A stretch of 64,000 nt of DNA, from assembly GCA_965248515.1 (NCBI GenBank), contig CBDFJU010000001.1:242592-306591 (forward strand), written 5' to 3'. A program made the translations under genes and the position numbers. This document shows positions 15,538-55,171 of this stretch, one piece after another (position 1 is the stretch's first letter; each line of letters begins with the position of its first letter). The DNA comes from Dehalococcoidia bacterium (lineage in GTDB: Bacteria > Chloroflexota > Dehalococcoidia > SHYB01). Under the pieces are notes generated by a model. It saw nothing but the letters and a program-made list of their open reading frames with translations, was not told the DNA's origin and made no database searches.

Positions 15538-15611
15538 GGGGCCTAGTCCGAGCGCCGGGTCAAGGTTTACCGGCGGGATTCCAGCGGTTGCCTCGCCCCT
15601 GGTGTCGAGTC

Positions 15612-15640
15612 TTGACGAAGGAGTACCAAGAAGCTACGAT
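15612..15640 (+). promoter_or_regulatory. candidate sigma70-type promoter in the divergent intergenic region (TTGACG-N17-TACGAT)
   Basis: TTGACG at 15612-15617 and TACGAT at 15635-15640 are separated by 17 nt. If this promoter is real, the kinase start is a downstream ATG (15660 or 15681). This is a pattern match only. Confidence 0.25.
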
Positions 15641-26284: not shown

Positions 26285-26318
26285 AGGCCTCTCTTTCGGA
26301 GGACAAAGGCGCCGGGTC

Positions 26319-30314: not shown

Positions 30315-31748
30315 ATGAAGGCGTTGGAGCACACGCTGATCGACGCCGACCTCGATGCCCGAGAAAGGGCGATCCGGGAGTTGGTCTACGATCGTCTCCC
30401 CAAGGACCCGCCACTCGAAGATGCCATCGTCGCCTCGTACTTCGTATCCTCGGAGGCGTCGACGATCGGGTCGATCGCGGTCGACGTCGCCAAGCTTCAA
30501 ACCACCGCGGTGGACAACCCTCCGCCGGGCTCACTGCTGGAGCGCTGCACCGGCCGGGTCGTCGACGTTCAGCCTTGGGACAACGATGGCCGGCTAGGTC
30601 TGGTGCGGATCGCGTTCCCCGTCGAGATCCTCGAGTCGTCGGGGTCCTTCTACTCCACGGAGATATTTCATATCGTCAGCGGCGCGGTCCAACACGACCT
30701 CACCGCGAGCACAGATGTGAAACTGGTGGACGTACTGCTGCCGGACCGTGTCCAAAAGGCTTTCCCCGGACCGGCGTTCGGCGCCGATGGCTTCACTCGG
30801 ATCGTCGGCCGTCAGCGGGCCGACTCGAACACCGGCCCGTCCCCACTCCTGGGCACTATCGTCAAGCCTTGCTCCGGCATCACCACAGACGAGCTCGTTG
30901 CTGTAGTGGACCAGGCCTGCCAGAGCGAGCAGATCGTGTTTATCAAAGAAGATGAGAACCTGCACCCCGACTTCCCCTGGTGTCCGCTAGAGGACCGCGC
31001 GAAAAGGGTCCAGCGCAAGGTGGAGGTAATCAATGCCGGCCGTTCCGGGAGCAGCCTGGTCTATGCCCCGCACATTACGAGCTCCCCCTCTCGCTTTTCC
31101 GAGCACCTGCGGACGGCATTGGACGCCGGCGTGTCGGCTGTCATGTTCAGCGAGACGTACGCCGGCGGGCTTTTTCGGTTGGCGCGCGACATCATTAGCG
31201 CCGGGTGCTACGACTGTCTGATCTACGGGCACAACGGAGGCATCGGCACGAGAAGCAGGAGTATCTACCGAGAGGTGCTGGATCTGTTCGCTCGGCTGGA
31301 TGGCATCGACTTTCGGCAGACCGCTCCCAGCGGGGACACGCCGTATCTCCGGCCGGCAGGGCTGGAGCACGAGAAGACGGAGGAGATACTCCAGCGGCCC
31401 CTTCAGGGCGGCCAACGGCCCGTGGTCATCGTACGGGCTGGCGGCCTGGACCAGGGGAACCTCTTGGCCAACCTGCGCGAGGTTGAGCGGGTTGGCGTTG
31501 ACCGGTATCTCTTCCTGTTCGGCTCGGCGATAAACGGGTTTGAGGGCTCTGACGGCGAGCCGGACCCCGCGGCGGGCGTTAGGGCAGTCGAGCAGGCGGT
31601 CGAAGCATATTCAGATCCCAGCCACACCTTCGACACGCTGTCGGGCCCGGAACACGTGGTTGAATTGTCCCAGTACGCGGAGGCAGCCGGAATGCGGGAG
31701 TTGGGTTCGTCGTTGCGCCAGCGCTACAACGATGTTTTGACTGGATGA
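30315..31748 (+). CDS. RuBisCO large-subunit-like protein (form IV RLP)
   Basis: FPGPAFG, PLLGTIVKPCSGIT, IVFIKEDENL, FPWCPLEDR, LIYGHNGG, VRAGGLD and LFGSAINGF are collinear with the RuBisCO large-subunit barrel motifs. Several carboxylase residues are substituted. Confidence 0.8.
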   Translation: MKALEHTLIDADLDARERAIRELVYDRLPKDPPLEDAIVASYFVSSEASTIGSIAVDVAKLQTTAVDNPPPGSLLERCTGRVVDVQPWDNDGRLGLVRIAFPVEILESSGSFYSTEIFHIVSGAVQHDLTASTDVKLVDVLLPDRVQKAFPGPAFGADGFTRIVGRQRADSNTGPSPLLGTIVKPCSGITTDELVAVVDQACQSEQIVFIKEDENLHPDFPWCPLEDRAKRVQRKVEVINAGRSGSSLVYAPHITSSPSRFSEHLRTALDAGVSAVMFSETYAGGLFRLARDIISAGCYDCLIYGHNGGIGTRSRSIYREVLDLFARLDGIDFRQTAPSGDTPYLRPAGLEHEKTEEILQRPLQGGQRPVVIVRAGGLDQGNLLANLREVERVGVDRYLFLFGSAINGFEGSDGEPDPAAGVRAVEQAVEAYSDPSHTFDTLSGPEHVVELSQYAEAAGMRELGSSLRQRYNDVLTG

Positions 31749-32515
31749 GCTCGCCGGCTTTTACGGCGTTGGCCCATCGTGGGGTCTGGGACCGGTACCC
31801 GGAGAACAGTCTCGGCGCGGTGCGGTCCGCCCTCGACGCCGGTTTCGGCGTCGAGCTTGATGTCCGGTTGACCCGCGACGGAGTGCCAGTCCTCAATCAC
31901 GATCCGTACGTCGCCTCGGCGGACGGCCAGCGTCTGGCGATCGACGAACACGGCCTGGACGAACTTTCAGCCTTTCCACTCGGCCGCTCTGAAGAACCGG
32001 TGGCCCGGCTCGACGATGCCCTTGCTTTACCGGGCATCGGGTCGACGCAAGTGGCCCTGCACTTGAAGGATGGCGCTCGACCCGACACTGTGGAGCGATT
32101 ACTCGATGCCATCCCCGAGGCGGTCCTGACGAACCTGTTCGTGTTCGACATCTCGCTTGAGCTTTGTGCCGAGTTCAAGGAGCTGGCGCCGCGGCTCCGT
32201 GTGGGTGTAAGCGTGGGAGACAAGAAGTATCACCGCTACTTCTATGACCTGAAGGACCTCGCCTCTGTGCCCGTGGATATCGTCTGGGCCGACGAGTACC
32301 GTCACCTGTACACATTTGAGTTCATTGAGGAGGCTCGTCGGATGGGCAAGGAGGTCTTTGCGGTCTCCCCGGACATCGCGGGACTGGTCGGACACCCCTT
32401 GGCAGAGGCGGGGTACGAGGCGTCGTGGGAGGACCTACTTCGTTGGGGAGCGGCTGGCATCTGTACGGATAAGCCTTTCGAGTTACAGAGCATGATCGAG
32501 GAGCGTGTTGGATGA
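31745..32515 (+). CDS. glycerophosphodiester phosphodiesterase (GDPD) family protein
   Basis: ALAHRGVWDRYPENSLGAVRSALDAGFGVELDVRLTRDGVPVLNHD. ATGA overlaps at both ends. Confidence 0.8.
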   Translation: MSSPAFTALAHRGVWDRYPENSLGAVRSALDAGFGVELDVRLTRDGVPVLNHDPYVASADGQRLAIDEHGLDELSAFPLGRSEEPVARLDDALALPGIGSTQVALHLKDGARPDTVERLLDAIPEAVLTNLFVFDISLELCAEFKELAPRLRVGVSVGDKKYHRYFYDLKDLASVPVDIVWADEYRHLYTFEFIEEARRMGKEVFAVSPDIAGLVGHPLAEAGYEASWEDLLRWGAAGICTDKPFELQSMIEERVG

Positions 32516-33234
32516 AAGTTGTGGTCCCAGCGGCCGGGGCGGCGAGCCGATTCGTGGAGGGTGGGTACACCGACCCCAAGCCCCTGATTACCGTTGGCGG
32601 GAAGCCGCTCATCAAGTGGGCCACTGATAGCGTTGACCTGCATTCGAGTCGAGACCAGTTCATTTTCATCGTGCGTGAGGAGGATATGGAGCGTCATTCC
32701 ATTGATCGAGTTCTGACAGGAATGTATCCGGACAGCGCCATCGTCTCCGTCGACAGCTTGACCGAAGGCGCTGCCTGCACGGTGCTGCTCGCCAGGGACC
32801 TGATCGATAGCCAGGAAGACCTCCTCATTGTCAACTGCGATACCGCCTTCAAGACTCCCCTCGCTGATGCAGCGAAGAGGTGGATGTCTGAAGTCGCTGG
32901 GATTGTCACCACTTTCGACTCGACCGACCCACGCTTCAGTTTCGCCAAGGTCGACGACGACGGCTTCGTCACCGAAGTTGCCGAGAAGAGACCCATCTCG
33001 GACCGGGCCACGGTTGGGGCGTATTACTTCACCCAGGGGGCGTACTTCGTGTGGGCCGCGGACCAGATGATCACGAAGGACGTCCGCGTGAACAACGAGT
33101 TCTATGTGGCGCCGACCTATAACGAACTGATCGCAGCCGGACACAAAGTTCGCGCGATACGGTCGGATTGGCTGGTGAGTCTTGGCACCCCTGAAGAGGT
33201 GGAAGACTACGCCAAGCAGCTTGCCAGACGGTAG
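32512..33234 (+). CDS. sugar/polyol-phosphate nucleotidyltransferase (240-aa GT-A type), paralogue A
   Basis: MKVVVPAAGAASRF..KPLI, TEGAACTVLLA, VAEKRPIS and NNEFYVAP. About half the residues are identical by eye to 35515..36237. Confidence 0.7.
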   Translation: MKVVVPAAGAASRFVEGGYTDPKPLITVGGKPLIKWATDSVDLHSSRDQFIFIVREEDMERHSIDRVLTGMYPDSAIVSVDSLTEGAACTVLLARDLIDSQEDLLIVNCDTAFKTPLADAAKRWMSEVAGIVTTFDSTDPRFSFAKVDDDGFVTEVAEKRPISDRATVGAYYFTQGAYFVWAADQMITKDVRVNNEFYVAPTYNELIAAGHKVRAIRSDWLVSLGTPEEVEDYAKQLARR

Positions 33235-33300: not shown

Positions 33301-33969
33301 GTGACGATCCTGGCGTTCATTTTCGATCTGGACGGAGTGCTGATCGATTCAGACCGGTACCATTGCCGTGCCCTCCAGCAGTCGCTTGCCCCGTTGGGCA
33401 TCGCGGTTACTGAAGCCGACTACGTTGCCCGATGCGCCGGAAATAATAGCCGGCATAACCTCGCCCTCTTCCTCGCCGAAGCTCGTGTAGAGGCCGATCT
33501 AGACGACATGGTTGAGCGGAAACGGGCTCTCTACTACAAGTTGATCGACCGTGAGGCGGTACCGGCGGAGGGGGCGTTAGATGCAGTCGGCATCCTTAAA
33601 GAGAAGAAGTACCGGCTGGGAGTGGCGTCATCGAGTCACGGCGCTGGCGTCAGCAAGGTCTTGAGTCGCTTGGACCTGGAAGCAGCGTTCGAGACCGTGG
33701 TCGATGCCGAACGTGTGCGTAACCTCAAACCGAGTCCCGATAGCTATCTCATGGCCGCCGAACAGCTGGGGGTCCAACCGAACCAATGCATCGCGATCGA
33801 AGACTCTCCCCCCGGCCTCCAGGCCGCGGTTGCCGCTGGGTTGATGGTGGCCATGGTCCGCAACGACTATAACCGAGGGCATACCTTTTCTGAAGCCGAT
33901 TGGGTGTTGGATAGTCTGCTGGGCCTGAACTCGCGGTTTCTGTCGCAAGAAGTCGAATGCATACCCTGA
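33301..33969 (+). CDS. HAD-IA hydrolase (beta-phosphoglucomutase/phosphatase family)
   Basis: FIFDLDGVLIDSD, GVASSS, KPSPDSYL and IAIEDSPPGLQAA. Confidence 0.8.
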   Translation: MTILAFIFDLDGVLIDSDRYHCRALQQSLAPLGIAVTEADYVARCAGNNSRHNLALFLAEARVEADLDDMVERKRALYYKLIDREAVPAEGALDAVGILKEKKYRLGVASSSHGAGVSKVLSRLDLEAAFETVVDAERVRNLKPSPDSYLMAAEQLGVQPNQCIAIEDSPPGLQAAVAAGLMVAMVRNDYNRGHTFSEADWVLDSLLGLNSRFLSQEVECIP

Positions 33970-35501
33970 TCGTTAACCTGGGGCTGAGAAGTGTGCGGGC
34001 CATCGTTTTCGATGAGCGCGGCCAGAAAGTGACCCACGAATGGTTTCCTGTCGGCACCTCCCTGAACGGAGACCGCGTCGAGCAGGACCCTGCGGAGTGG
34101 TGGGGGCTGGCGGTGCGCGCAATCCGGCGCGCCCTCGCTGACCTGGAGGACGTGTCTAGCGTTCGCTACATGTCGGTGACGTGTCCTTCGGGGTGTCTCG
34201 TGGTCTTGGGGGCAGATGGCGGGCTCCTTGCGCCGTCTTTGATGGTCGCCGACAAGAGAGCGCGGGAGCAGGCGGAGTCGATCCGGCAAACGGAATCCCT
34301 GTCCACGGTGTTCGAGAACGGTAACAACCTCGCTGAGGCCAGCTATCTCTGGCCAAAGATACTATGGCTTCAGGAACACGAGCCTGAGGTGGTACGGGAG
34401 GCATCGGCGTTTCTCAATGCCAACGACTACCTGGCCTATCGGTTTAGCGGAATGACGGTCACAGACCCATTGAATGCAGAGAAGCTCTACTTCGACCCCG
34501 TCACTGGCGAGTATCCCCGGGCGCTGCTGGACCGAGTCGGACTGAGCGAGCGGTATTTCCCGGAGGTCCAACCGATCGGCACCGATCTCGGACCGATCAC
34601 CTCGGAAGCCGCCAGCGAGACGGGCCTGTCGCCCGACACGCGCTTCGTTCTGACAACTTATGACGCCATCTGTGCGTTCTGGGGGTCGGGGGTAAGGAAT
34701 GTGGGCGAGGCTTGTAGTGTCTCCGGTACTTCTCTATCCTGTCGGGTTCTTTCTCTGGAGCCGGCCGGAAGGAATGAAGCGGGGATCCTCTCACAGTACT
34801 ATTCGCCCAGGAATGCCTACGTCGTTGGGGGCTCGAACAATCTCGACGGCGGTCTCCTGGAGTGGGCGCGTGACTGTTTCTACAGCGAAGGCTATACGGG
34901 CAGGCCCGACTACCTGTACGAGCTCATGCAAGAAGAAGCGGCGGCAAGCACGGTTGGTGCTCGGGGGCTCGTGTTCGTCCCGTATCTGATCGGAGAGCGG
35001 GTCCCTCGTTGGGACCCAGACGCTCGGGGCGTCTTCTTCGGCCTCGAGCGCTACCATCGCCGTAGCGACATTGTCCGCAGTATCTTCGAAAGCACCGGAT
35101 TCCTGGCTGTCAACATGATAAACGCGATTGAATCCAGCGGTGTCTCGGTCGACAGCATACGCATGTCCGGAGGCCTTTCTCGCATGCGCCACGCTTGCGA
35201 GCTCCGGGCTCACATCACCGGGAAACCGGTCCACATCCTGGCGGAGCACGAGACGGCGGCGATGGGCGCCTACATGGCTGTGGCGCAAAGCGTCGGTCTG
35301 GGCCGAGACCCGGGGGAACTCTCGCAACTCGTGCGCATCGCCGAGACCTTCGAGCCTGATAATGAGCTGCATGAGCAGTACGCGGGGTTCTACGAGCTCT
35401 TCGAAGAAGTCTACCAGAGCCTCGAAAGCGCATTTAGAAGCCGGAGCAGCTTGCTGCGAAAGCTCTCGCTTGCCGACGGCAAGTACTCCCAGAATCTGTA
35501 G
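33957..35501 (+). CDS. FGGY-family carbohydrate kinase (xylulokinase/ribulokinase-like)
   Basis: 514 aa. NLGLRSVRAIVFD, DKRA, LTTYDAICAFWGSG, FVPYLIGERVPRWD and SGGLSR. Confidence 0.8.
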   Translation: MHTLIVNLGLRSVRAIVFDERGQKVTHEWFPVGTSLNGDRVEQDPAEWWGLAVRAIRRALADLEDVSSVRYMSVTCPSGCLVVLGADGGLLAPSLMVADKRAREQAESIRQTESLSTVFENGNNLAEASYLWPKILWLQEHEPEVVREASAFLNANDYLAYRFSGMTVTDPLNAEKLYFDPVTGEYPRALLDRVGLSERYFPEVQPIGTDLGPITSEAASETGLSPDTRFVLTTYDAICAFWGSGVRNVGEACSVSGTSLSCRVLSLEPAGRNEAGILSQYYSPRNAYVVGGSNNLDGGLLEWARDCFYSEGYTGRPDYLYELMQEEAAASTVGARGLVFVPYLIGERVPRWDPDARGVFFGLERYHRRSDIVRSIFESTGFLAVNMINAIESSGVSVDSIRMSGGLSRMRHACELRAHITGKPVHILAEHETAAMGAYMAVAQSVGLGRDPGELSQLVRIAETFEPDNELHEQYAGFYELFEEVYQSLESAFRSRSSLLRKLSLADGKYSQNL

Positions 35502-35514
35502 CGAGGTCACGTAG

Positions 35515-36237
35515 ATGAAGATCGTGATGCCGATGGCGGGCCGAGGTTCCCGATTCAAAGAGGTGGGCTACGACGAGCCCAAGCCGGTAATCGACATTCT
35601 CGGTAAGCCCATGATCCAGTGGGCGCTGGACTGTATTGACTATCGTCCTCAGGACGTTATCTTCATCTGTCTCGAAGACCACGTTCGAGATCACCATATC
35701 GACGATCGTCTCCGTGGGTTGTTCTCCGACGAGATTACGGTGCTCACGACCGACGGAGTTACCGAGGGTGCGGCTTGCACGGTGCTGTTGGCGAAAGAGT
35801 TGATCGACAATGACGATGAGTGCATCGTGTACAACTCAGACCAGTTTTTCAGATCGTCCCTGACAGAAGCGATCAGGACCCGGCCCTCTGACGTAACGGG
35901 GATCATCCCGGTTTTCAAGGCGACCCATCCCAAATGGAGCTACGCCCGCCTGGGCGACGAGGGGTATGTCGTCGAGGTGGCCGAGAAAGTTCCGATTTCT
36001 ACGCATGCAACGGTGGGTCTGTACTATTTCAGTCACGGGAAGGACTACGTCTGGGCCGCGGAGCAGATGATCGCCAAGGACCTTCGGCGCAACAATGAGT
36101 TTTACGTCTGTCCCGTTTACAACGAGTTGATCCAGCGCGGTGACAAGATACAGATCTGCGAGTGCGATTCCATGTGGGGGTTGGGGACGCCAGAAGACGT
36201 TGAGCAATTCGAGCGGTACTATCGCTCCAACGCGTAG
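35515..36237 (+). CDS. sugar/polyol-phosphate nucleotidyltransferase, paralogue B
   Basis: MKIVMPMAGRGSRF..KPVI, TEGAACTVLLA, VAEKVPIS and NNEFYVCP. Confidence 0.7.
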   Translation: MKIVMPMAGRGSRFKEVGYDEPKPVIDILGKPMIQWALDCIDYRPQDVIFICLEDHVRDHHIDDRLRGLFSDEITVLTTDGVTEGAACTVLLAKELIDNDDECIVYNSDQFFRSSLTEAIRTRPSDVTGIIPVFKATHPKWSYARLGDEGYVVEVAEKVPISTHATVGLYYFSHGKDYVWAAEQMIAKDLRRNNEFYVCPVYNELIQRGDKIQICECDSMWGLGTPEDVEQFERYYRSNA

Positions 36238-36261
36238 CTCAGACATCTTCGCGCTAACGAA

Positions 36262-38208
36262 ATGATCAAAGGCATCAGAGCCAGAGCCGCGAGTTTGGCG
36301 AGCGACGTCGTCCTTTTTCGTAGGGCCGCCGTCTATGTCTTGCCGTACTGGCAGCGCCTGGTGCTGGCCGGCGTCTGCGCGGTCTTCATGAGCATCGCCG
36401 GCGGCATGTCGGCCTACTCCGTTCTGCCGATCATGCAGGTCGCCTTGGAGGCCGACCGGGAACAAAACCTGGAAGCCACCGAAGGCGCTAGCGACCAGGG
36501 CGGGGAAGTCACTCCTACGGTTGTCATCGATCCCGTCGGCGAGACAACCGTCATTGGGCGTTGGCTCAACCGGCAATTCGACAGGGTATCCAGCGGCGGA
36601 AGTCAGTTGACGAGGCTGGTGTCACTGGCCTCGCTGGCCTTCGGTCTGCTGTTGGCGAGTCAACTCGTGGCCGCGCTCCTCGAGATGATCTTCGCTTCTA
36701 TCCAGGCCGGAGGAGTGAAGCGGTTTCGGATCGCGACGTTTTCCCACCTCAACCGTCTTCCGCTGACCTACTTCAACAAGAACAAGGCGGGGATCATCAT
36801 CGCCCGGGTCGAAAACGACCTCGGTGGGGCTATCCAGATGGTCACGGGCAGCATGTTGGTCGTTTTCATGCACCTCTTCATGGCGGTCGTGCTGACAACG
36901 CTGTTGATAAGCACGAGTCCGCGGCTCGTCCTAGTTGCCCTGCCCGTGGCGGTGCTGGCTTCATTATTTTCTAGCTTTATCGCTGGATGGGTGAGGAGGC
37001 TACGGACAAGGATTCAGGCGAATGTAGCGGACATCGTGGTCATCTTGCAGGAATTCCTGGCGGGCGTACGAGTAATCCGCGCCTTTTCACGAGAGGACTA
37101 TGAGATCAGCAAGTTCGAGGCGCAAATTGAACGGGGGAGGAAACTGGAGATCAGGAACGTCCTGGCAAAGGCCTTGTTGCCAAGGGGCGTGAACCTGGCG
37201 TCGGCCGTCGCCATCGCCGTGGTGTTTGTCTACGGCGGCGCGCTGATGATAGATGGCGTGTTGGGAGTCGGACAACTCATCCTTTTCGCGTTTCTGCTGC
37301 AGCGTCTGCAAGTGCCGGGGATGGCCCTGGTGAACGCCTATGCCACTGCCCAGGGTGGCCTTGCCTATGCGGAGCGCTCATTCGATCTGATGGACGCACC
37401 CGAACAAGAGGCTGCGGGCGTGTTGGAAGTGAAGAAGGTCAGCGATCGAATCGCGTTCAGAGGCGTCGCGTTCGATTATGGGGAGGGCCCCGTTCTCCAG
37501 GGAATCGACCTGGAGTTGCCTGTCGGCTCCATGGTGGCGCTCGTTGGACCCAGCGGCGTCGGCAAATCGACTATGGGCGATCTGCTCATTCGCTTCTACG
37601 ATCCGGTCGAGGGGAGCATCACCCTGGACGGCGCCGATATCCGCGAATTCGATCTGGCATCCTACAGATCGCTCTTCGGAATGGTGACGCAAGACACCTT
37701 TTTGTTCCACGACACCGTGAAATTCAACATCGCCTACGGCTCCGACACGGCCTCGCTCGGCCAGGTAGAGGCGGCCGCTCGGGTGGCCGATGCCGACGGG
37801 TTCATCCGCAATCTCCCAAAAGGTTACGAAACCGTCATCGGCGATCGGGGTGTCCGCCTCTCGGGAGGACAGCGCCAGCGGATCGCCATCGCGCGGGCCG
37901 TTCTGAAGAATCCGCCCATCCTGATTCTTGATGAGGCCACGAGCTCGCTGGACACCGAGGCGGAAAGGCAAGTCCAGAAGGCCATCGACAGGCTAATTGA
38001 AGGACGCACAGTGCTCGTAATCGCGCACCGTCTGTCGACCGTCCGCCGTGCGGACAACATCGTGGTGCTAGACCGAGGACGAATCGTGGAGAAAGGCCGG
38101 CACGCAGAACTCCTGGCGCTCGGCGGTCAGTACAAGCGGCTCTACGCGCTACAATTCGAGGACGCAGGCGCCGAGGACAACCCTTCACAGCTCCTGGGGG
38201 CCCGCTAA
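36262..38208 (+). CDS. ABC exporter, fused TMD-NBD half-transporter (MsbA/PglK type)
   Basis: Six-TM domain. Walker A GPSGVGKST, signature LSGGQRQR, Walker B ILILDEATSSLD. An unusually long (~55 aa) loop sits between TM1 and TM2. Confidence 0.88.
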   Translation: MIKGIRARAASLASDVVLFRRAAVYVLPYWQRLVLAGVCAVFMSIAGGMSAYSVLPIMQVALEADREQNLEATEGASDQGGEVTPTVVIDPVGETTVIGRWLNRQFDRVSSGGSQLTRLVSLASLAFGLLLASQLVAALLEMIFASIQAGGVKRFRIATFSHLNRLPLTYFNKNKAGIIIARVENDLGGAIQMVTGSMLVVFMHLFMAVVLTTLLISTSPRLVLVALPVAVLASLFSSFIAGWVRRLRTRIQANVADIVVILQEFLAGVRVIRAFSREDYEISKFEAQIERGRKLEIRNVLAKALLPRGVNLASAVAIAVVFVYGGALMIDGVLGVGQLILFAFLLQRLQVPGMALVNAYATAQGGLAYAERSFDLMDAPEQEAAGVLEVKKVSDRIAFRGVAFDYGEGPVLQGIDLELPVGSMVALVGPSGVGKSTMGDLLIRFYDPVEGSITLDGADIREFDLASYRSLFGMVTQDTFLFHDTVKFNIAYGSDTASLGQVEAAARVADADGFIRNLPKGYETVIGDRGVRLSGGQRQRIAIARAVLKNPPILILDEATSSLDTEAERQVQKAIDRLIEGRTVLVIAHRLSTVRRADNIVVLDRGRIVEKGRHAELLALGGQYKRLYALQFEDAGAEDNPSQLLGAR

Positions 38209-38289: not shown

Positions 38290-39408
38290 ATGCCAGAGAT
38301 AGTCTTCATCGATGGAACGCAGCGGAGTGGGACGGGGCTCGTGCAACGGCTGCTCGACGGCCACTCCCAACTCGGCGTCTATCCGTTCGAAGATCGCACG
38401 ATCCTCGGACTATGGGAAGGCTACGATGATATCGACAACGCGTTGCGCACCCGGAGGCCACAGCAGCTTACCGCGGCGCTCCTCCGCTGGGGGGGCCTGT
38501 CGACCCTGAAACAACATAGTGAGGATGGCTACATCGAGTTCTCTCGCAACCCCGAGTCCTACAGTTCCCGAAATGAGTTCGACTTCGAGGTCGCGGGGTT
38601 TGTTCATGAGTTCGAAGCGAGTTTGTCGCGGCGGTTCGAGGAAGAGGGGGAGGAGCTTCCGACGGTCTCGGATATGTACCAAGAATACCTGGCTTCGTTT
38701 TACCGGACCCTTGAGCGCGACCGTCCGGATGCGGCGCCGAGACGGTACTTCGTCGTCAAGCAGCCCGAGTCGACTCCGGCGCTGCGGTTCTTTTTCGAGC
38801 ACTTCTCCAGCGGCAGGGTCATCTACGTCATCCGCGACCCGAAAGGCTGGCTGACCTCGTTGAGGTGGTTCCCGTCGTATCTCGAGAATCGAGACATCAG
38901 ACCGCTGCACTCGGCATGCGAGCAGTGGGTGCGGGAAACCCAACCAGTGTTGGGCCTTCAGCGCGAGGTCGGCTCGGAGCGACTTGCCATAGTGAGTTAC
39001 GAGGAGCTCGTCGAACACACCTCCGACGTGATGACCGGACTCTGTGATTGGCTGGGAATACCAGTCGAGGAGTGTCTGCGCACCCCCACGTTCATGGGCA
39101 ATAGCTGGGTCGGGGACTCCACCTACAAGGGCCATGAGGGAGTTTATGCGGACTCTACGGCGAGATGGCGGCAACTGCTCACCTCCTGTGAGATCTCGTA
39201 TATTGAGACCCTGTGCCAACGGACTATGGCGGCGTTCGGCGTTCCCAGGCACTCCGAGAAACGCTTGTGGCGAGGGTTGGCAGTGAGCTTGCATGCAGCG
39301 GCCCTCAGGTTCCAGTGGAGCAGGATCATTCCGTTGCGCATGCTATCGCTGTTGGTGCTCCGCTCCTTGAGCAAGCGAGTTACTGGCCTGGACTATCAAC
39401 GAGACTAA
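38290..39408 (+). CDS. sulfotransferase family protein
   Basis: 5'-PSB-like FIDGTQRSGTGLV and 3'-PB-like VIYVIRDPKGWLTSL. The protein is soluble and 372 aa long. Confidence 0.65.
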   Translation: MPEIVFIDGTQRSGTGLVQRLLDGHSQLGVYPFEDRTILGLWEGYDDIDNALRTRRPQQLTAALLRWGGLSTLKQHSEDGYIEFSRNPESYSSRNEFDFEVAGFVHEFEASLSRRFEEEGEELPTVSDMYQEYLASFYRTLERDRPDAAPRRYFVVKQPESTPALRFFFEHFSSGRVIYVIRDPKGWLTSLRWFPSYLENRDIRPLHSACEQWVRETQPVLGLQREVGSERLAIVSYEELVEHTSDVMTGLCDWLGIPVEECLRTPTFMGNSWVGDSTYKGHEGVYADSTARWRQLLTSCEISYIETLCQRTMAAFGVPRHSEKRLWRGLAVSLHAAALRFQWSRIIPLRMLSLLVLRSLSKRVTGLDYQRD

Positions 39409-39490: not shown

Positions 39491-40570
39491 ATGACCGCTC
39501 CTACCCTGGTCACGGGTGGCTGTGGTTTCGTGGGCAGGCACGTGGTGACGCACCTCATCCAATCCGGGCGATCGGTGTGGATCGTCGACGATCTGTCGAC
39601 AGGTCTGGACCCCGGAGGTTGGCTGCCCAAGGAAAAGGTGAAGCTGGAGCATGGAAGCCGATGTGTAGAGTATCGGCTGGAGAATGTCTCCGTGACCTTC
39701 GTTAACGCCGACGTAAGAAGGTTCTTCAGAGAGCAGCCCTCGGGCGGAGAATCGGAGTTGTGTGGCCATCACATGACGCCAAGCTTTGGCGACGTGATTC
39801 ACCTCAGCTCCATCGTTGGCGGGCGGGCTGTGATCAATGGTGACCCCCTGGCCGTGGCGCAAGACCTCGCCATCGAAGCGGACTTGTTCGTCTGGGCGAG
39901 GAGAACTCGCCCAGAGCGCACTCTATATGTCAGCTCCAGCGCCGCCTATCCCATCGATCTCCAGGGCAGGGATGGCGCCGTCGCCCTCAGCGAAGAGATG
40001 ATCGACTTCGGAGGACGGTTGGGTCAGCCCGACATGACGTACGGGTGGTCCAAGCTCTCCGGTGAGTATCTCGCCCGGATAGCGGCAAGCCATTACGGTC
40101 TCCATGTCGCGTGTGTCAGGCCCTTTTCCGGGTACGGGGAAGACCAGGACGACACCTATCCGGTCACAGCAATCGCGGGTCGGGCGGCGAAGCGCGAGGA
40201 CCCACTGATTGTCTGGGGGTCCGGCGATCAGGGCCGGGACTTCATACATATCGATGACTGCGTCGACGCAATGTTCCGCGCACTGGATGCCATCGACGAC
40301 GGTTCTGCCGTCAACCTGGGTTCTGGCAAGTTAACAACGTTCAAGCAGGTGGCGGGGATGTTCGCTCGCTTAGCTGGGTACAAGCCTGAGATCAAAGGAC
40401 TGATCGACAAGCCAACAGGGGTGCACTCCCGGTACGCGAACATGGACCGGGCACATCGAGTGTTGGACTGGAAGCCCAAGATATCTCTTGAAGAGGGGCT
40501 GAAAAGAGTCTTCGAGGCCGTGGCTGGAAAAACAAGCCACGAGCACGCCCATCCCGACCGGGAGGATTGA
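39491..40570 (+). CDS. NAD-dependent epimerase/dehydratase (extended SDR)
   Basis: LVTGGCGFVGRHVV, a YGWSK catalytic YxxxK motif, and FIHIDD. Confidence 0.85.
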   Translation: MTAPTLVTGGCGFVGRHVVTHLIQSGRSVWIVDDLSTGLDPGGWLPKEKVKLEHGSRCVEYRLENVSVTFVNADVRRFFREQPSGGESELCGHHMTPSFGDVIHLSSIVGGRAVINGDPLAVAQDLAIEADLFVWARRTRPERTLYVSSSAAYPIDLQGRDGAVALSEEMIDFGGRLGQPDMTYGWSKLSGEYLARIAASHYGLHVACVRPFSGYGEDQDDTYPVTAIAGRAAKREDPLIVWGSGDQGRDFIHIDDCVDAMFRALDAIDDGSAVNLGSGKLTTFKQVAGMFARLAGYKPEIKGLIDKPTGVHSRYANMDRAHRVLDWKPKISLEEGLKRVFEAVAGKTSHEHAHPDRED

Positions 40571-41685
40571 TGTCGGTCTGTATCGTAACTACGACCATCA
40601 ACCGCCCGGTGCTCCTTCAGGCGTACTGTGAGAACGCTCGGGCCCATGGGCACAAGGATGTCCAGTTCGTCATCATCGGCGACAAGAAGACTCCTCCCGA
40701 TGTTGGGGCGTATTGCGCAACTTTGAGCAACGACTATGGCTACCAGGTCGACTACCTCGATGTCGATGCCCAGCTGAGCTATCTGGCCAGCTACCCTGAA
40801 CTTGGCGAACACCTGCCGTTTAATTCGATCCAGCGGAGGAACATCGGTCTCTTGATCGGGTATCAAACAGGGCGAGACGTGATTGTCACCATCGACGATG
40901 ACAATCTCGTAGGGGAAGACGACTATTTCGGCGCCCACGGTGATGTTGGAAACAGCATCGAACGAGATTCTATTTCGTCGGACACAGGCTGGTTCAACGT
41001 TTGCGAGATGCTGGAAGAAGAAGCGGGGAGGCCGTTCTATCACAGGGGCTACCCGATGGAGCAGCGCTGGTCCGACGGAGAGACGTTCCGTGATCGACGG
41101 AAAGCGCGCGTTGTCGTCAACGCAGGACTGTGGCTGAACGACCCGGACATCGATGCGGTTACGAGACTCGATATGCCCATCAGGACCGTGGGTGTTCGAC
41201 CGGAGCTTCCCGAACGCCTGCTCCTCGCTTCTGGGACATGGTGCCCGTTCAACTCGCAGAATACCGCGTTGGCGCGAGAGGTGATCCCGGCCTATTTCTT
41301 GAGCCCATACGTGGGTCGATACGATGATATCTGGGCCAGCTATTTTCTGAGAAAGATTGTCGATCACCTTGGGGATGCCGTTCAGTATGGGCAACCTCTG
41401 GTCACGCAGGAGCGGAATGTCCACAATCTGTGGGTGGATCTCGACAAAGAGCGAGATGGCATGCAGCTCACCGATCGATTGGTCTCAATGCTTCGCGGCC
41501 TACAGTTGGAGGAAGAAACATACGGAGCATGCTTTCAGGAGCTTACGGAAGGCGTCAGTAGTGCGGTGTTGGTGTCGGACTCCTTCGACGCCAATGCCAA
41601 GAAGTTCATCGGCGACGCATTGCAGGGAATGCGGGTCTGGAGCGGTATCTTTGCCGAGGCCGCGGAGGGACGACGAGTTGATTAA
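40570..41685 (+). CDS. reversibly-glycosylated-polypeptide (RGP, GT75) family protein, UDP-arabinopyranose-mutase-like
   Basis: IVTIDDDNLV (cf. plant IFTIDDDCFV) and FYHRGYPMEQRW...NAGLWLNDPDIDAVTRL (cf. FVRGYPFSLREG...HGLWLNIPDYDAPTQL). Also GRYDDIWASYFLRKIVDHLG (cf. [20 protein letters not shown]). GGAGGA lies upstream of the ATG. Confidence 0.7.
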   Translation: MSVCIVTTTINRPVLLQAYCENARAHGHKDVQFVIIGDKKTPPDVGAYCATLSNDYGYQVDYLDVDAQLSYLASYPELGEHLPFNSIQRRNIGLLIGYQTGRDVIVTIDDDNLVGEDDYFGAHGDVGNSIERDSISSDTGWFNVCEMLEEEAGRPFYHRGYPMEQRWSDGETFRDRRKARVVVNAGLWLNDPDIDAVTRLDMPIRTVGVRPELPERLLLASGTWCPFNSQNTALAREVIPAYFLSPYVGRYDDIWASYFLRKIVDHLGDAVQYGQPLVTQERNVHNLWVDLDKERDGMQLTDRLVSMLRGLQLEEETYGACFQELTEGVSSAVLVSDSFDANAKKFIGDALQGMRVWSGIFAEAAEGRRVD

Positions 41686-42232
41686 GATCAATCTAGGATC
41701 AGGTGATCGGCCAATAGAGGGGTTCATCAACGTCGACGCCCGCGACATTCCCGGAATCGAGTTTCCGAACACTCGCGTCGAAGACCTCTCCCAGTTCCAA
41801 GACGACTACGCCGACTACATCTACGCATGCCACATCCTGGAGCACCTTCCCCGGGACAGCACCTTCTCGACCCTTTGTGAGTGGAACCGGGTCTTGAAGC
41901 CGGGGGGTATCCTGCGCGTGGCGGTGCCTGATTGGGATGCGACGGTCGACTACTATGCCGAGAACAGGGACCTGGAAAACTTGCTCAACTGGATCTACGG
42001 TGGCCGAGAACACGGAGACAACTATCATCACCGAATCTTCAACTACCCAGGACTAAGAACTCTCCTAGCCGAGTCCGGATTCAAGCGCATCCGAAAATAC
42101 GAGTGGAGAGATACGGATCATGCCAGCCATGATGACTTCTCCAAGGCGTACATTCCTCACATGGACGCCGAGAATGGCCGGCTGATGAGCTTGAACGTCG
42201 AATGTGTCAAGCACACCTACGTCAAAAGGTAG
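41678..42232 (+). CDS. class I SAM-dependent methyltransferase
   Basis: INLGSGDRPIEGFINVD, ACHILEHL and LKPGGILRVAVPD. TTG start (41678 or 41651), overlapping the upstream stop. Confidence 0.7.
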   Translation: MIKINLGSGDRPIEGFINVDARDIPGIEFPNTRVEDLSQFQDDYADYIYACHILEHLPRDSTFSTLCEWNRVLKPGGILRVAVPDWDATVDYYAENRDLENLLNWIYGGREHGDNYHHRIFNYPGLRTLLAESGFKRIRKYEWRDTDHASHDDFSKAYIPHMDAENGRLMSLNVECVKHTYVKR

Positions 42233-43295: not shown

Positions 43296-44555
43296 ATGAT
43301 CATTGGCTTCTTGATGCTTCGCAATACCTTCTTGAAAACGCTGGGTGGCGTTATCGAGGAGGGCCTCAAGCAGGGGCATAGGGCAGTGCTCTTCTACGAC
43401 CCAACCCTCGAACTCGGCGCCAAGAGCTACCAGTCTTTCGGTCCGGGTGATTGTCCGACGTTCGTTTCAGGTAGGCCCGACCTGGTGGATTGCACTTCCC
43501 AGACGCTACCTCAGCGCTGCGCCCAGATTGGCGTTCAGGTGCTGGTAACACAGGAGGGGTATAACCTCGGTGGGCAATCTGGCTATACCGACGCGTTCAT
43601 CGAACTCAAGCGCTCTGGAGTGAAGACCGCGTCGGTATGTAACTTCTACGAAACTTCGACGTGGTCGCTCGAAGCGTTAGACCATTTCGACAAGACCTAT
43701 TACCTGAGCGAATATGCGCGCCAGCTCCACTTTAGCGTTCAGCCCCGAGAACATCGGGGTGTCCGGAGAGAGCAGCTGCTGGCTAAGCAAGAGGTCGTAG
43801 GCTCGCCCGTCTTTGATCTGCTCCGCAACGTGGACCCCGATGACGCTCGGGAAGCCTTCGGTATCGCTCGGGGCAAGAAGGTCGTGCTGTTGATATCGCC
43901 GGTGGTCAGCCGGGATGCGTGGCATCGAGCGGCGTGGTCGTCGAGAAGCAGGCGTGGCGCCACTCTCCAGGCGATCAAAGACCGTCAGTTCGGTCACATA
44001 CCCGAGGTCTGGTCGGGCCTGAGGTACGACGCGATGATCGGTGCCATCAAGGATTTCTGCGATCGGAGCGGAGCGTTGATGGCTGTCAAGGCCAGGCCCA
44101 AGCAGACTGACCCTTCCTCCGTGTTGCAGCAATGCGACCTGTACATCGATGGAACTGACGATGAGTACTACCCGACCTTCACCACACATCAACTGCTCTC
44201 GGTCGCAAGCCTTTGCATCACGGCGGCCAGTTTCGCCGCATTGGAGGCTGCGGAAGCGGGGGTTCCGGTACTCAGTATCCTCATACCGCCCTTTCATAGG
44301 AGAGGGATGCCGGAAACGGAGCGCCGGTACAACCTGGCAATTAGCGACAAGCGAAGCGGACCGTTTAACCATCCTGGCTGCGTTTTCGGTGTAGATCGCC
44401 GGATGGTCAAGCGCTTCCTGCGGGACAAGACTCTGGAAGATTTCACCGTCGATCAGGCCGCACGGAGTTGGTATACCGACCACTACAGCGGGATGACAAA
44501 TGAGACGAGCGGTCGCCGCATCGTCCGCTCGATTGAGGCTTTGGTCGCCCAGTGA
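43296..44555 (+). CDS. hypothetical protein, possibly GT-B/TagF-like transferase
   Basis: 419-aa soluble ORF in the operon frame. There is only weak resemblance to GT-B or polyol-phosphate transferases (VVGSPVFD, KKVVLLISP, SLCITAASFAALEAAEAGVPVL). Confidence 0.35.
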   Translation: MIIGFLMLRNTFLKTLGGVIEEGLKQGHRAVLFYDPTLELGAKSYQSFGPGDCPTFVSGRPDLVDCTSQTLPQRCAQIGVQVLVTQEGYNLGGQSGYTDAFIELKRSGVKTASVCNFYETSTWSLEALDHFDKTYYLSEYARQLHFSVQPREHRGVRREQLLAKQEVVGSPVFDLLRNVDPDDAREAFGIARGKKVVLLISPVVSRDAWHRAAWSSRSRRGATLQAIKDRQFGHIPEVWSGLRYDAMIGAIKDFCDRSGALMAVKARPKQTDPSSVLQQCDLYIDGTDDEYYPTFTTHQLLSVASLCITAASFAALEAAEAGVPVLSILIPPFHRRGMPETERRYNLAISDKRSGPFNHPGCVFGVDRRMVKRFLRDKTLEDFTVDQAARSWYTDHYSGMTNETSGRRIVRSIEALVAQ

Positions 44556-45640
44556 CTCAAAGAATCCGAGCCCTCATGATGGACATCGACGGCGTGCTCA
44601 CCGATGGGCTCGTTCGACTCACCGAAGACATGACAGAAGCGAAACAGCTGTCGTACCGAGACATAGACGCGGTATTCGAGGCCAAAAGGATGGGACTGGT
44701 ACTCGGGCTTGTGACAGGAGAACGGTCTCCAATGGTGGGAGTCGTTGCACGACGGCTCGATATCGATAGCGTCTATGCGGATTCGAAGAAGAAGGAAGCG
44801 GCGCTGACTGACTTCTGCTCGAGTTCCGGGGTGCCCCTTCACGAGGTTTGTTACATAGGGGATTCGGACCGAGACGCACCCGCGCTGGAGATGGTGGGGT
44901 TAGGCTTGGCCCCAGGAAATGCGACAAGCGTCGCGAAACATGCGGCCCGCCAGGTGTTGGAAACCAACGGCGGTCACGGTGCGATCGCTGAGGCGCTGGA
45001 CATCATCCGGGCTTTTAACCTCCGTCCTCAACAGACGGTGACCCTCGATCCGGACTCCGCGTGGGCGGAGGCGCCCGTAGTCGCCTCGCTCAGAGAGAGC
45101 ATTGCCGTGAAACAGGAGATGCTGGCCGCTCTTGTCTCCGAAGTGGCGGAGGCCGCACATTGGCTTGTCGAGACCTTTCAGGCAGACCGCAAAGTCTTGC
45201 TCTTCGGCAACGGAGGCAGCGCATCGGATGCTCAACACATGGCAGCTGAGTTAGTCGGGCGGTTTGAGTCGCCCAATCGACGGGCTCTGCCGGCAATCGC
45301 CTTGTCCTCCAACGTGCCCTCGTTGACCGCGATCGCCAACGACATTTCTTTCGATTCGGTGTTCGGGCGGCAGGTCGAGGCCCTGGGTCAACCAGGCGAC
45401 CTGATCATGGCCTTCAGCACCAGCGGGAACTCGCCCAATGTCATCCGAGGCATCGAGGCCGGTAAGTCCAGGGGGCTACGGATTATCGGGCTCACTGGAG
45501 CAAGTGGCGGAAACATGGCTGCACACTGCGAACTGCTCTTGAACGTCCCGTCGCGACGGACCGCGCGGGTACAAGAATGCCATATAGCGATCTGTCACTC
45601 GTTGTGCGACGCCCTGGAACAGGCACTCGCCGGGCAGTGA
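44552..45640 (+). CDS. fusion protein: KdsC-type HAD phosphatase (N-terminal) + GmhA-type SIS phosphoheptose isomerase (C-terminal)
   Basis: N-terminus: LMMDIDGVLTDG, YIGDSDRD and TNGGHGAIAE. C-terminus: the canonical VLLFGNGGSASDAQHMAAELVGRF, LPAIALSSN...TAIANDISF, AFSTSGNSPNV, LTGASGG and RVQECH. Confidence 0.8.
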   Translation: MTQRIRALMMDIDGVLTDGLVRLTEDMTEAKQLSYRDIDAVFEAKRMGLVLGLVTGERSPMVGVVARRLDIDSVYADSKKKEAALTDFCSSSGVPLHEVCYIGDSDRDAPALEMVGLGLAPGNATSVAKHAARQVLETNGGHGAIAEALDIIRAFNLRPQQTVTLDPDSAWAEAPVVASLRESIAVKQEMLAALVSEVAEAAHWLVETFQADRKVLLFGNGGSASDAQHMAAELVGRFESPNRRALPAIALSSNVPSLTAIANDISFDSVFGRQVEALGQPGDLIMAFSTSGNSPNVIRGIEAGKSRGLRIIGLTGASGGNMAAHCELLLNVPSRRTARVQECHIAICHSLCDALEQALAGQ

Positions 45641-53929: not shown

Positions 53930-55171
53930 ATGAAAGTCTTGATTCTTGGAGCCGGCCCCGCAGGCTGCGCGAGCGCCTATTACCTCAAGCGCCAAGGTTT
54001 CAGCGACATCACGATCGTCGAGCGGAGCGCCGTAGGAGGGAACGCCCATACAAGCTTCTACGAGGGCATCCCCTATGAGTTCGGCCCCCAGATCATGTAC
54101 ACGGACGAAGACCGACTCAGGGAGGTGTTCGAAGTCTTCCTGCAGCAGCACGCGGCCCCGACTCACGACGGGCGATACTACCCTGCCCTTTCGGTCGATG
54201 GGACCCTGAAGCGCGGCTCGGTCCACAGCTTCCCAGTAACCATCAGCAACGTGCTCCAACTCCCGGAGCCGGAAAAAGTGATCGACGAACTGTACAGGGT
54301 CAACCTCGATAAGCCGGACTATTCGAACTTCGAAGCCTACGTCATCAGCCGAATGGGGGAAACCCTCTATAACACCTACGTGAAGAACTACAATATCAAA
54401 CAGTGGAAGGTCCACCCGAGTGAGATGGATGCCGAATGGGCGCGGTTCCGAAACCTGACCCTCAGGGTGTCCGGGAGCATGTTCGGAGATAAGTGGCAGG
54501 GTCACCCCGGTAGCTACAACCCGATGTGGGAAGGCATGCTGGAGGGGGTCAAGGTAATCTACGGCTCCGCCGAGGTAGCCGACGACCTCTCCTCAGTCGC
54601 CGTTGACGGTGAGCGAATCGATGCGGACCTCGTGATTTCGAGTTTGCCGCTCTCGAATCGTCTCGACTTCATCAACACGTGTAAGGTGTATATCGGCATC
54701 GACGACGGCGAGTTTCTCATGCCCTCGTACACCACATCCTTTCCAAACTCCTACGACTTCGTTCGAATTCTCGAATACAAACAGCAGTTCTACGTCGATT
54801 CGCCCTACGCCTTGTTGGACTTCGCGTTTCCTTGGATAGGACAACCCACGGAGCAAGAATACATAGAGCAAGCCAAGCTGTTCGTGGAAGAGGAGCTGAA
54901 GCGCGAGGTCCGCGACCTGTGGGTGGACAGCCGTGAAACGGTTTATCCGGTTAGCACGAAAGAGAATCTGGAACTTGTCGAGCATCGACTGGACATGATG
55001 AGCAAGTCGAACATTATCCCCGTTGGACGATGCGGCGTTCACGCCTATGTCTCCAAGGACACCTGCATCCGCATGGCGCTGATCATGGTTGAGAATCTCG
55101 AAGCTTTGCTCGGCGGCGACCCTGTCGCGAAAAGGGGGATCCTGGGCAAGATGCGAGAGAAGCTCACGTAG
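53930..55171 (+). CDS. glf: UDP-galactopyranose mutase (flavin-dependent) family protein
   Basis: MKVLILGAGPAGCASAYYL...ERSAVGGNA is the FAD-binding motif. GETLYNTYVKNYNIKQW, GDKWQGHPG, RILEYKQ and YPVSTKENLEL...GRCGVHAY are collinear with E. coli Glf. Confidence 0.8.
   Translation: MKVLILGAGPAGCASAYYLKRQGFSDITIVERSAVGGNAHTSFYEGIPYEFGPQIMYTDEDRLREVFEVFLQQHAAPTHDGRYYPALSVDGTLKRGSVHSFPVTISNVLQLPEPEKVIDELYRVNLDKPDYSNFEAYVISRMGETLYNTYVKNYNIKQWKVHPSEMDAEWARFRNLTLRVSGSMFGDKWQGHPGSYNPMWEGMLEGVKVIYGSAEVADDLSSVAVDGERIDADLVISSLPLSNRLDFINTCKVYIGIDDGEFLMPSYTTSFPNSYDFVRILEYKQQFYVDSPYALLDFAFPWIGQPTEQEYIEQAKLFVEEELKREVRDLWVDSRETVYPVSTKENLELVEHRLDMMSKSNIIPVGRCGVHAYVSKDTCIRMALIMVENLEALLGGDPVAKRGILGKMREKLT

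Follow-up and report, generated by a model that had tools for sequence, protein, structure and literature searches.

A GT75 gene of the bacterial MtdL kind and its predicted part in a surface-glycan locus of a Dehalococcoidia bacterium

Furanoses of the bacterial envelope are usually ascribed to flavin-dependent mutases of the UDP-galactopyranose mutase (UGM) type. Bacterial mutases of the family GT75 are, to our knowledge, known only from two antibiotic pathways. One of them, the Mn-dependent MtdL, is the GDP-L-galactopyranose/GDP-L-fucopyranose mutase of the A201A antibiotic pathway, and its active-site residues were defined by structure and mutagenesis (PMC9937993). The other is Hyg20, of the hygromycin A pathway. 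Literature searches found no later work on bacterial GT75 beyond PMC9937993. The present analysis concerns a GT75 gene in a 64-kb stretch of DNA (the window) from a Dehalococcoidia bacterium (assembly GCA_965248515.1, contig CBDFJU010000001.1). An initial annotation had proposed for this gene a plant-type route to a furanosyl donor, possibly UDP-L-arabinofuranose (UDP-Araf), a route that it called rarely discussed for bacteria. The latter remark is only half true, since two bacterial GT75 mutases, MtdL and Hyg20, have been characterised.

The product of 40570..41685 truly belongs to GT75, where it is of the bacterial MtdL kind and not a plant-type member. Its gene is the second of four, namely a short-chain dehydrogenase/reductase (SDR) gene, the GT75 gene, a methyltransferase gene and a GT2-like gene, which in that order form a translationally coupled unit. 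Taken as a whole, the locus is best explained as an operon for a GDP-type sugar mutase that feeds a surface glycan, and this explanation is held with reasonable, though not high, confidence. The unit and its landmarks are as follows.

39491..40570, plus strand: extended SDR ("type A"), 359 amino acids, predicted nucleoside diphosphate (NDP)-sugar epimerase/reductase; Pfam Epimerase (PF01370), 119.7 bits
40561..40572, plus strand: ribosome-binding site and stop/start overlap (GGAGGA at 40561-40566; TGATG at 40568-40572)
40570..41685, plus strand: GT75/RGP-family protein, 371 amino acids, predicted from Pfam, MtdL homology and the structural model to be a divalent-cation-dependent, flavin-independent NDP-sugar pyranose/furanose mutase
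Key codons in the GT75 gene: Ile87 at 40828-40830; DDD at 40894-40902; Arg159 (AGG) at 41044-41046; Gln280 (MtdL His287) at 41407-41409
41678..42232, plus strand: class I S-adenosylmethionine-dependent methyltransferase, 184 amino acids; Pfam Methyltransf_11, 34.6 bits
42204..43199, plus strand: GT2-like glycosyltransferase, 331 amino acids, candidate furanosyl transferase; start GTG 42204, alternative ATG 42234

The overlap of the first two genes, which had been pointed out at the outset, can be read directly in the sequence. The TGA of the SDR gene (40568-40570) shares its A with the ATG of the GT75 gene at 40570, and GGAGGA lies upstream. The most likely start of the methyltransferase is TTG 41678 (MIKINLGSGDRP), with GGAGGG 8-13 nt upstream, and this gene overlaps the GT75 stop codon (41683-41685) by 8 nt. 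The GT2-like gene, in turn, follows with no gap, its start overlapping the end of the methyltransferase gene.

The GT75 protein and its active site

The translation of 40570..41685 includes VIVTIDDDNLV, PFYHRGYPMEQRW, VVNAGLWLNDPDIDAVTRL and VGRYDDIWASYFLRKIVDHLG, and all three of the motif blocks quoted earlier are present in it. The Pfam RGP profile (PF03214) matches residues 82-338 at 58.5 bits (E 8.7e-16), above its cut-off of 23.8 bits, and this is therefore no chance resemblance. A missing RGP match had been named at the outset as grounds for refutation, and that check is thus passed. A match to STELLO (PF03385), at 17.6 bits, was under the threshold and was disregarded. Within the PDB (Protein Data Bank), the top sequence matches (185 bits, E 1.7e-53, residues 2-362) are the entries 7XPR, 7XPS, 7XPT, 7XPU, 7YUA and 8HL8, deposited under the title "Transglycosylse"; these entries are MtdL (PMC9937993). 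The sole plant entry matched, the rice UDP-arabinopyranose mutase (UAM) UAM2 (8CID), reached 22 bits (E 5.5e-4). A profile of the 120 closest homologues gave 272.6 bits to MtdL versus 31.8 bits to rice UAM2.

The same picture was obtained from structure. An AlphaFold model built from the alignment of the 120 closest homologues (pLDDT 96.4, pTM 0.94) has a GT-A Rossmann-like N-terminal region, a family-specific core and C-terminal helical regions. In Foldseek comparisons, the model matched MtdL with a TM score of 0.89 and 33% identity over about 379 alignment columns; for rice UAM2, the figures were 0.63 and 16%, and the GT2-type GT-A transferases reached a TM score of only 0.35-0.43. MtdL is thus far nearer than the rice enzyme in bits and in TM score, and the label "plant-type" is wrong. 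The closest homologue, from a Dehalococcoidia metagenome-assembled genome (MAG), is 63% identical.

The residues of the protein were mapped onto those of MtdL by pairwise and multiple alignment, with the following outcome.

DxD motif: D109-D110-D111 (MtdL D109-111), kept
Nucleophilic/autoglycosylated arginine: R159 (MtdL Arg159), kept
Partner aspartate: D193 (MtdL D195), kept
Sugar and phosphate contacts: S229-Q230 (MtdL S228-Q229), kept
Beta-phosphate arginine: R250 (MtdL R257), kept
Proposed general base: D253 (MtdL D260), kept
Loop A phosphate contacts: R282 and H285 (MtdL R289 and H292), kept
Ribose contact: R90, kept
Base contacts: T8 (T13), I10 (I15), D38 (D40) and S86, kept
Base contact: Lys40 for MtdL Asn42, changed
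Sugar contact: Ile87 for MtdL Asp87, changed
Mn2+ ligand: Gln280 for MtdL His287, changed

Arg159 of MtdL is the equivalent of the autoglycosylated arginine of the plant enzymes (PMC9937993), and the window protein does include the counterpart of this arginine that had been claimed for it, with its Arg159 aligned to that of MtdL. It has been reported that mutation of the MtdL counterparts of D109, R159, D193, Q230, R250 and D253 abolishes activity, and that the MtdL variants D87N and D87S are inactive (PMC9937993). Conservation was assessed in the 120 closest homologues. D109, D110, D111, R159, D193, S229, Q230, R250 and D253 are invariant there, as is Gln280; for Lys40 and Ile87, conservation is 90% or more. 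As Gln280, Lys40 and Ile87 are conserved in this manner, the changes relative to MtdL are not decay.

Among the 150 best cluster representatives from a library of 1.8 billion proteins, positions 87 and 287 (MtdL numbering) co-vary strongly. Ile/Val87 occurs with Gln287 in 55 sequences, and 34 are of the MtdL type, with Asp87 and His287; the combinations Ile/His (n=8) and Asp/Gln (n=4) are rarer, and about 15 more Gln287 sequences carry Gly, Phe, Ala or Asn at position 87. This co-variation suggests a coupled change of the sugar contact and the metal site. At least two large subfamilies are therefore present in prokaryotic GT75. Lysine at MtdL position 42 is usual in both of them (117 of 151 sequences). 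By its residues, the window protein is assigned to the Ile/Val87-Gln287 subfamily, distinct from the Asp87/His287 type of MtdL.

Genomic context was compared in 85 loci (cited below as L001 and so on), using simple calls of open reading frames around the 80 best genome matches, mostly MAGs. The Ile/Val87-Gln287 signature is present in nearly all of these loci, across many phyla. The branch is also abundant, with thousands of metagenomic proteins. In a 90%-clustered collection, 4244 scored candidates were GT75 homologues at E <= 1e-3. A count of cluster representatives gave 2670 at E <= 1e-3, 1554 at 1e-10 and 375 at 1e-30. Species-representative genomes hold at least 555 confirmed GT75 stretches, a count that is a lower bound. 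The matches listed include Acidobacteriota, many Patescibacteria, Planctomycetota, Actinomycetes, Gammaproteobacteria, Nitrospirota, Dormibacterota and archaea.

Divergent GT75 paralogues that lack the DxD motif (D-S-Q, D-P-N or D-P-H) were also seen in L069, L075, L078 and L079, from Bryobacter and other Acidobacteriota. Positions 287, 289 and 292 are lost as well in those of L069, L075 and L079; the one in L078 is incomplete there, and Arg159 is kept. These paralogues are probably non-catalytic, like the plant class 2 RGPs.

Partner genes and the choice of nucleotide and sugar

The initial annotation had also coupled the GT75 gene to an SDR epimerase/dehydratase. The coupling is upheld. In 26 of the 85 loci, across phyla, the gene immediately before GT75 encodes an orthologue of the SDR (criterion, >300 bits), and most of these pairs show the same overlap or a gap of at most 30 nt. 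In the enzyme itself, the nucleotide-binding GxxGxxG occupies residues 9-15, and the Ser/Tyr/Lys triad, from SSSAAYP and YGWSK, is intact; G9-G15, S148-150, Y184 and K188 are invariant in 27 orthologues. A homologue in a Dehalococcoidia MAG is 70% identical. Dehydratases and decarboxylases of this class carry one or more acidic residues right after the catalytic Ser/Thr, as in the T-x-E of UXS/ArnA and the T-D-E of RmlB. The motif S-S-S-A-A-Y-P, unlike theirs, has no Glu/Asp after the serine, and the NCBIfam dehydratase and decarboxylase models all remained far under their cut-offs. The extended-SDR designation stands, and with the acidic residues of dehydratases and decarboxylases lacking, an NDP-sugar epimerase or reductase is plausible.

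The sugar that this SDR acts on is less easily read. Against the PDB, its family profile was about equally far from several known types, with 131 bits to UDP-glucose 4-epimerase, 125 to UDP-glucuronate 4-epimerase, 114 to GDP-mannose 3,5-epimerase (GME) and 108 to UXS; with the single sequence, the score to Arabidopsis GME was 57 bits. None of the PDB profile matches is a solved structure of a type A SDR orthologue. When it was aligned with bona fide GMEs, Ala and Tyr223 were found in place of the GME residues Cys145 and Lys217. The SDR was considered as a GME or as a GDP-L-fucose synthase (GFS) and rejected as either, being orthologous to neither and having neither the Cys145/Lys217 pair of GME nor the Cys109/His179 pair of GFS.

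The nucleotide can be approached through the base contacts. Thr13 and Ser86 govern the base selectivity of MtdL, with a contribution from Asn42; T13P weakens GDP binding and S86D abolishes it, and at MtdL positions 13, 42 and 86 the plant GT75 enzymes carry Pro, Asp and Asp (PMC9937993). The window protein has Thr, Lys and Ser at these positions, and its subfamily keeps Thr at position 13 and Ser or Cys at position 86. Further, GT75 genes with the same key residues have a bona fide GME within 3 kb in 10 loci, adjacent in 6 of them; the GME scores 351 bits to the Arabidopsis enzyme and keeps the catalytic Cys and Lys. In 10 loci, mostly of Planctomycetota, a GFS homologue adjoins the GT75 gene, with 184 bits to structures of GFS, that of E. 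coli among them, and in 9 it abuts or overlaps the GT75 start. The order GME then GT75 reproduces the logic of the A201A pathway exactly, and GFS then GT75 that of hygromycin A. In 11 loci, a homologue (259 bits) of PDB 6vo6, which we take to be the Campylobacter GDP-heptose 4-dehydrogenase Cj1427, lies near GT75. In a neighbour-joining tree, the GT75s paired with the window-type SDR are interspersed among those paired with GME, and all known contact residues are common to them, which suggests the same or a similar substrate for both. The base residues, these neighbouring genes and the tree thus favour a GDP-linked sugar.

Mutase activity of the window protein is likely. That its nucleotide is GDP is rated at a little better than even, and a sugar of the L-galactose or L-fucose type can be put forward only tentatively.

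Downstream of the GT75 gene, the methyltransferase shares 67% identity, across 181 residues, with the C-terminal domain of P0009, a GT75-methyltransferase fusion of 594 aa, and such fusions account for 5 of the 120 closest GT75 homologues. The fusions are evidence that both activities act on the same sugar. The GT2-like gene matches Pfam Glycos_transf_2 weakly (25.9 bits against a cut-off of 23.3), and its homologues lie just downstream of GT75 in L001 (77 and 116 bits) and L005 (233 bits).

A different arrangement prevails in many other loci. In 50-52 of the 85, GT75 is preceded by a GT2 of about 245 aa, with or without the SDR in between. The best matches of this GT2 are weak ones, to polyprenyl-phosphate glycosyltransferases (dolichyl-phosphate hexose transferase, ArnC, PgfS and AglJ). 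These loci often add polytopic membrane proteins of about 550 aa, of the PMT_2 type in L006, where a flippase-like protein is found too. Such a set looks like an Arn- or Gtr-style lipid-carrier glycosylation that would be fed by the mutase. The small GT2 and the large polytopic proteins are both absent from the 64-kb window, and the lipid-carrier interpretation was not applied to its locus.

Two observations on these relatives may be added. The module of GT2, type A SDR, GT75 and polytopic (GT-C/PMT_2-like) proteins recurs in Patescibacteria, Acidobacteriota and others (L006, L014, L024, L026, L028, L029, L033-L035, L038, L042, L052, L076, L082 and others; ~10 kb around position 10000). In L061 (Kitasatospora cystarginea) and L081 (Streptomyces enissocaesilis), an Ile87/Gln287-type GT75 sits in natural-product-like clusters with EryCIII-like GT1 enzymes, AMP-binding enzymes, an APH-like kinase, a SARP regulator and a DrrA-like ABC protein, and L081 also has a GME. 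These clusters are reminiscent of those for hygromycin A and A201A. Among the cultured organisms that carry the subfamily are K. cystarginea JCM 7356, S. enissocaesilis JCM 9088 and Nocardioides sp. SYSU D00038.

The surrounding glycan locus

A large glycan locus surrounds the coupled unit on the plus strand, from 22 kb to 64 kb of the window, and these roughly 40 kb are predicted to build a surface glycan. Three genes outside the unit bear on the argument.

35515..36237, plus strand: sugar-1-phosphate nucleotidylyltransferase (Pfam NTP_transferase)
36262..38208, plus strand: fused ABC exporter (Pfam ABC_membrane and ABC_tran)
6947..8287, minus strand: nucleotide-sugar dehydrogenase, TviB-type UDP-GlcNAc 6-dehydrogenase, 374 bits

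The pair of nucleotidylyltransferase and exporter also accompanies GT75 in the closest loci, L001 and L005, which additionally share a RuBisCO-like protein or an FGGY kinase with the window. Several GT2 and GT4 genes, further methyltransferases and SIS proteins are encoded in the glycan locus too. The dehydrogenase had been cited in support of a supply line in which enzymes of the UXS/UXE type draw on UDP-glucuronate. It is indeed encoded, but on the minus strand and about 31 kb from the GT75 gene, and it is best described as the TviB type, with only 126 and 78 bits to the UDP-glucose 6-dehydrogenase models. No UXS-like decarboxylase was found in the window, where phmmer detected no further extended SDR, and the proposed supply line was set aside for lack of support.

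The rest of the locus has features of its own. The RuBisCO-like protein (30315..31748, plus strand; RuBisCO_large, 37.6 bits) has weak matches to type III RuBisCO, OiaX and MtnW. Near it (31745..33234 and 33957..38208) are encoded a GDPD-family protein, two paralogous nucleotidyltransferases, a HAD protein, a xylulokinase-like FGGY kinase and the ABC exporter, and a trio of RuBisCO-like protein, nucleotidyltransferase and ABC exporter also joins the GT75 of L005. A sugar-activation setting is unusual for a RuBisCO-like protein. At 23874..27137 (plus strand), consecutive genes encode a SIS-domain protein, a transketolase split into one gene for its N-terminal and one for its C-terminal half, and a shikimate-dehydrogenase-like protein, which suggests that an unusual keto sugar or a sugar of higher carbon number is made for the glycan. 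Downstream of the coupled unit, a KdsC-like HAD phosphatase fused to a GmhA-like SIS domain (44552..45640, plus strand) is followed, up to 50120 on the same strand, by a xylose-isomerase-like TIM barrel, a GFO/IDH/MocA oxidoreductase, a PseF/KdsB-like cytidylyltransferase, a classical SDR and a NeuB-family synthase. These genes are probably a pathway for a CMP-ulosonic (nonulosonic-type) acid.

A flavoprotein distantly like UGM is encoded at 53930..55171 (plus strand; Pfam GLF 38 bits, TIGR00031 69 bits, NF005548 96 bits), so the locus may encode two kinds of ring mutase. Related flavoproteins adjoin GT75 in several Acidobacteriota loci, of which L003 (9152..10507), L037, L018 and L022 are listed. 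A sulfotransferase gene (38290..39408, plus strand) lies immediately upstream of the SDR gene, and a carbamoyltransferase and an asparagine-synthase-like amidotransferase are encoded at 56292..57986 and 60825..62735 (plus strand). The glycan probably carries sulfate, carbamoyl and amide groups besides methyl groups. Upstream of the glycan locus, a 1166-aa DUF4012 protein (12037..15537, minus strand) diverges from a chain-length regulator with a Wzz domain and a tyrosine-kinase-like P-loop (15588..17333, plus strand).

Proposed route, rival readings and known systems

By analogy with MtdL, the GT75 protein is best read as a flavin-independent route to a furanosyl donor. Its family membership and fold, the conserved catalytic residues, the gene coupling and the comparative context are shown, whereas the activity, the nucleotide and the sugar are inferred, as is the order in which the SDR, mutase, methyltransferase and transferase would act. 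The upstream SDR would supply the pyranose epimer that serves as substrate. A divalent cation, held by Asp111 of the DDD motif (109-111) and the diphosphate, would position the NDP-sugar, with Gln280 perhaps acting, in place of histidine, as a metal ligand or a phosphate contact. Arg159, activated by Asp253, would displace the nucleotide at C1 and give a transient arginine-sugar adduct. Asp253 (MtdL Asp260) and Asp193 (Asp195) would shuttle protons, the ring would open and reclose via O4 with the assistance of Asp193 and Arg250, and re-attachment of the nucleotide would yield the NDP-furanose. The methyltransferase and the GT2-like enzyme may then consume the furanose, by modification and subsequent installation in the surface glycan.

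Several points weigh against a GDP-sugar mutase operon of this kind. The SDR is only 25% identical to a GME and is an orthologue of neither GME nor GFS; its best matches in the structural databases are UDP-sugar 4-epimerases, and members of its family also occur apart from any GT75 gene, as in Thermobaculum terrenum. Neither a GDP-mannose pyrophosphorylase nor a GDP-mannose dehydratase is encoded in the window. Literature searches turned up no assayed Ile87/Gln287 enzyme, and with Ile87 and Gln280 changed, the metal use, the sugar choice and even the reaction could differ from those of MtdL. The most serious competitor, though still an unlikely one, is a mutase for some other NDP-sugar, such as GDP-heptose or the product of the upstream FGGY kinase, HAD and nucleotidyltransferase genes, to which Ile87 and Gln287 would be fitted. 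The hydrophobic residue in place of the sugar contact Asp87 speaks for it, as do the genes typical of GDP-heptose synthesis (GHMP kinase, SIS, HAD and nucleotidyltransferase) in L003, L037, L061 and L070, the homologues of 6vo6, the presumed Cj1427, and the nucleotidyltransferase and exporter that travel with GT75 in L001 and L005. Heptose-type genes, however, occur in few loci, GME and GFS partners being commoner. A GDP-heptose substrate made by genes of the window itself was considered and set aside: the GmhA-like domain (44552..45640), joined in one protein to a KdsC-like phosphatase, is grouped with the NeuB and CMP-transferase genes, so it belongs more likely to the ulosonic-acid pathway.

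The plant route, by which UDP-glucose dehydrogenase and UXS would feed the SDR, acting as a UDP-xylose 4-epimerase, and the GT75 protein would be a UDP-L-arabinopyranose mutase that yields UDP-L-Araf, appears quite improbable. It is true that plant members of the same family catalyse this reaction (PMC9937993), and that the SDR, which lacks dehydratase and decarboxylase residues, has UDP-hexose and UDP-uronate 4-epimerases as its best solved-structure matches. The UAM match of 22-32 bits and TM 0.63 stands, however, against 185-272 bits and TM 0.89 for the GDP-specific MtdL; the base-selectivity residues are the Thr and Ser of the GDP type, as in MtdL, and not the plant Pro and Asp; subfamily members elsewhere are paired with GDP-sugar enzymes, GME or GFS; and the window offers no UXS-like gene, only the TviB-like dehydrogenase, on the opposite strand and 31 kb off. 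The UDP-Araf product first suggested is accordingly not borne out. Least probable of all is that the protein is no mutase, whether it be a self-glycosylating (arginine-glycosylating) protein, a conventional DxD glycosyltransferase or an enzyme impaired by the loss of the metal-binding histidine. GT75 proteins do autoglycosylate, and the inactive AtRGP5 lost both His287 and Arg257 (PMC9937993), the first of which is Gln in the window protein. Yet, this Gln280 is invariant and not degraded, Arg250 (MtdL Arg257) and the other catalytic residues are invariant too, and it is the DxD-less paralogues of L069, L075 and L079 that lose 287, 289 and 292 together. Many GT-A enzymes, moreover, hold their metal through the DxD motif and the diphosphate alone.

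An extension of the mutase reading gives the methyltransferase a larger part. The coupled or fused enzyme would methylate, on the nucleotide-linked sugar, the hydroxyl that is freed only in the furanose, and so make the thermodynamically unfavourable contraction irreversible, while the same mutase elsewhere would feed lipid-carrier furanosylation. In many bacteria of the candidate phyla radiation and in Acidobacteriota, the product would pass from the mutase to a polyprenyl-phosphate glycosyltransferase, a flippase and a GT-C enzyme, and end as an envelope furanose. This combined proposal is a long shot; if it were true, it would amount to a widespread and so far undescribed flavin-independent system of lipid-carrier furanosylation.

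The Ile87/Gln287 GT75 proteins are a known kind of enzyme in a very large subfamily with a changed metal ligand and a changed sugar contact, and the one in the window has an envelope-glycan rather than an antibiotic setting, coupled or, in relatives, fused to a methyltransferase. If they are active, environmental bacteria would commonly make furanoses without flavin, by a route that has been overlooked, and new enzymes for making GDP-furanoses would be at hand. In annotation, such genes should not carry the names of plant UDP-arabinose mutases.

Of the described systems, MtdL of Marinactinospora thermotolerans (A201A; 7XPR/7XPS/7XPT/7XPU/7YUA) has the same three-region architecture and is homologous to the window protein over its full length. 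Its DDD, Arg159, Asp195, Ser228-Gln229, Arg257, Asp260, Arg289, His292, Thr13, Asp40 and Ser86 are conserved there, whereas its His287, Asp87 and Asn42 are Gln, Ile and Lys. The setting differs too, MtdL belonging to an antibiotic cluster and the window gene to a surface-glycan locus with an ABC exporter, in which the partner SDR is no GME orthologue and a methyltransferase is coupled to GT75, or fused with it in relatives. Hyg20 of Streptomyces hygroscopicus (hygromycin A) is likewise a bacterial GT75 GDP-L-fucopyranose mutase, and its GDP-L-sugar comes from an SDR (PMC9937993); the GFS-GT75 gene pairs of Planctomycetota follow the same logic. No protein named Hyg20 was found among the relatives of an actinomycete member of the subfamily.

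The plant class 1 RGP/UAM enzymes (OsUAM1/3 and AtRGP1-3) share with the window protein the Pfam and CAZy family, the catalytic arginine, the DxD motif, the two aspartates and the flavin-independent ring contraction. They are, however, distant (22-32 bits; 16% identity and TM 0.63 to rice UAM2), use UDP-sugars, have Pro/Asp/Asp at positions 13/42/86 and keep the metal-binding histidine (PMC9937993). Similarly, UGM (Glf) and its Campylobacter relatives carry out the same net reaction, from NDP-pyranose to NDP-furanose, for surface glycans; in C. jejuni, a 4-epimerase and a mutase are reported to lead to UDP-L-Araf (PMC10615251). Their fold, however, is unrelated to that of GT75, and their mechanism depends on FADH2.

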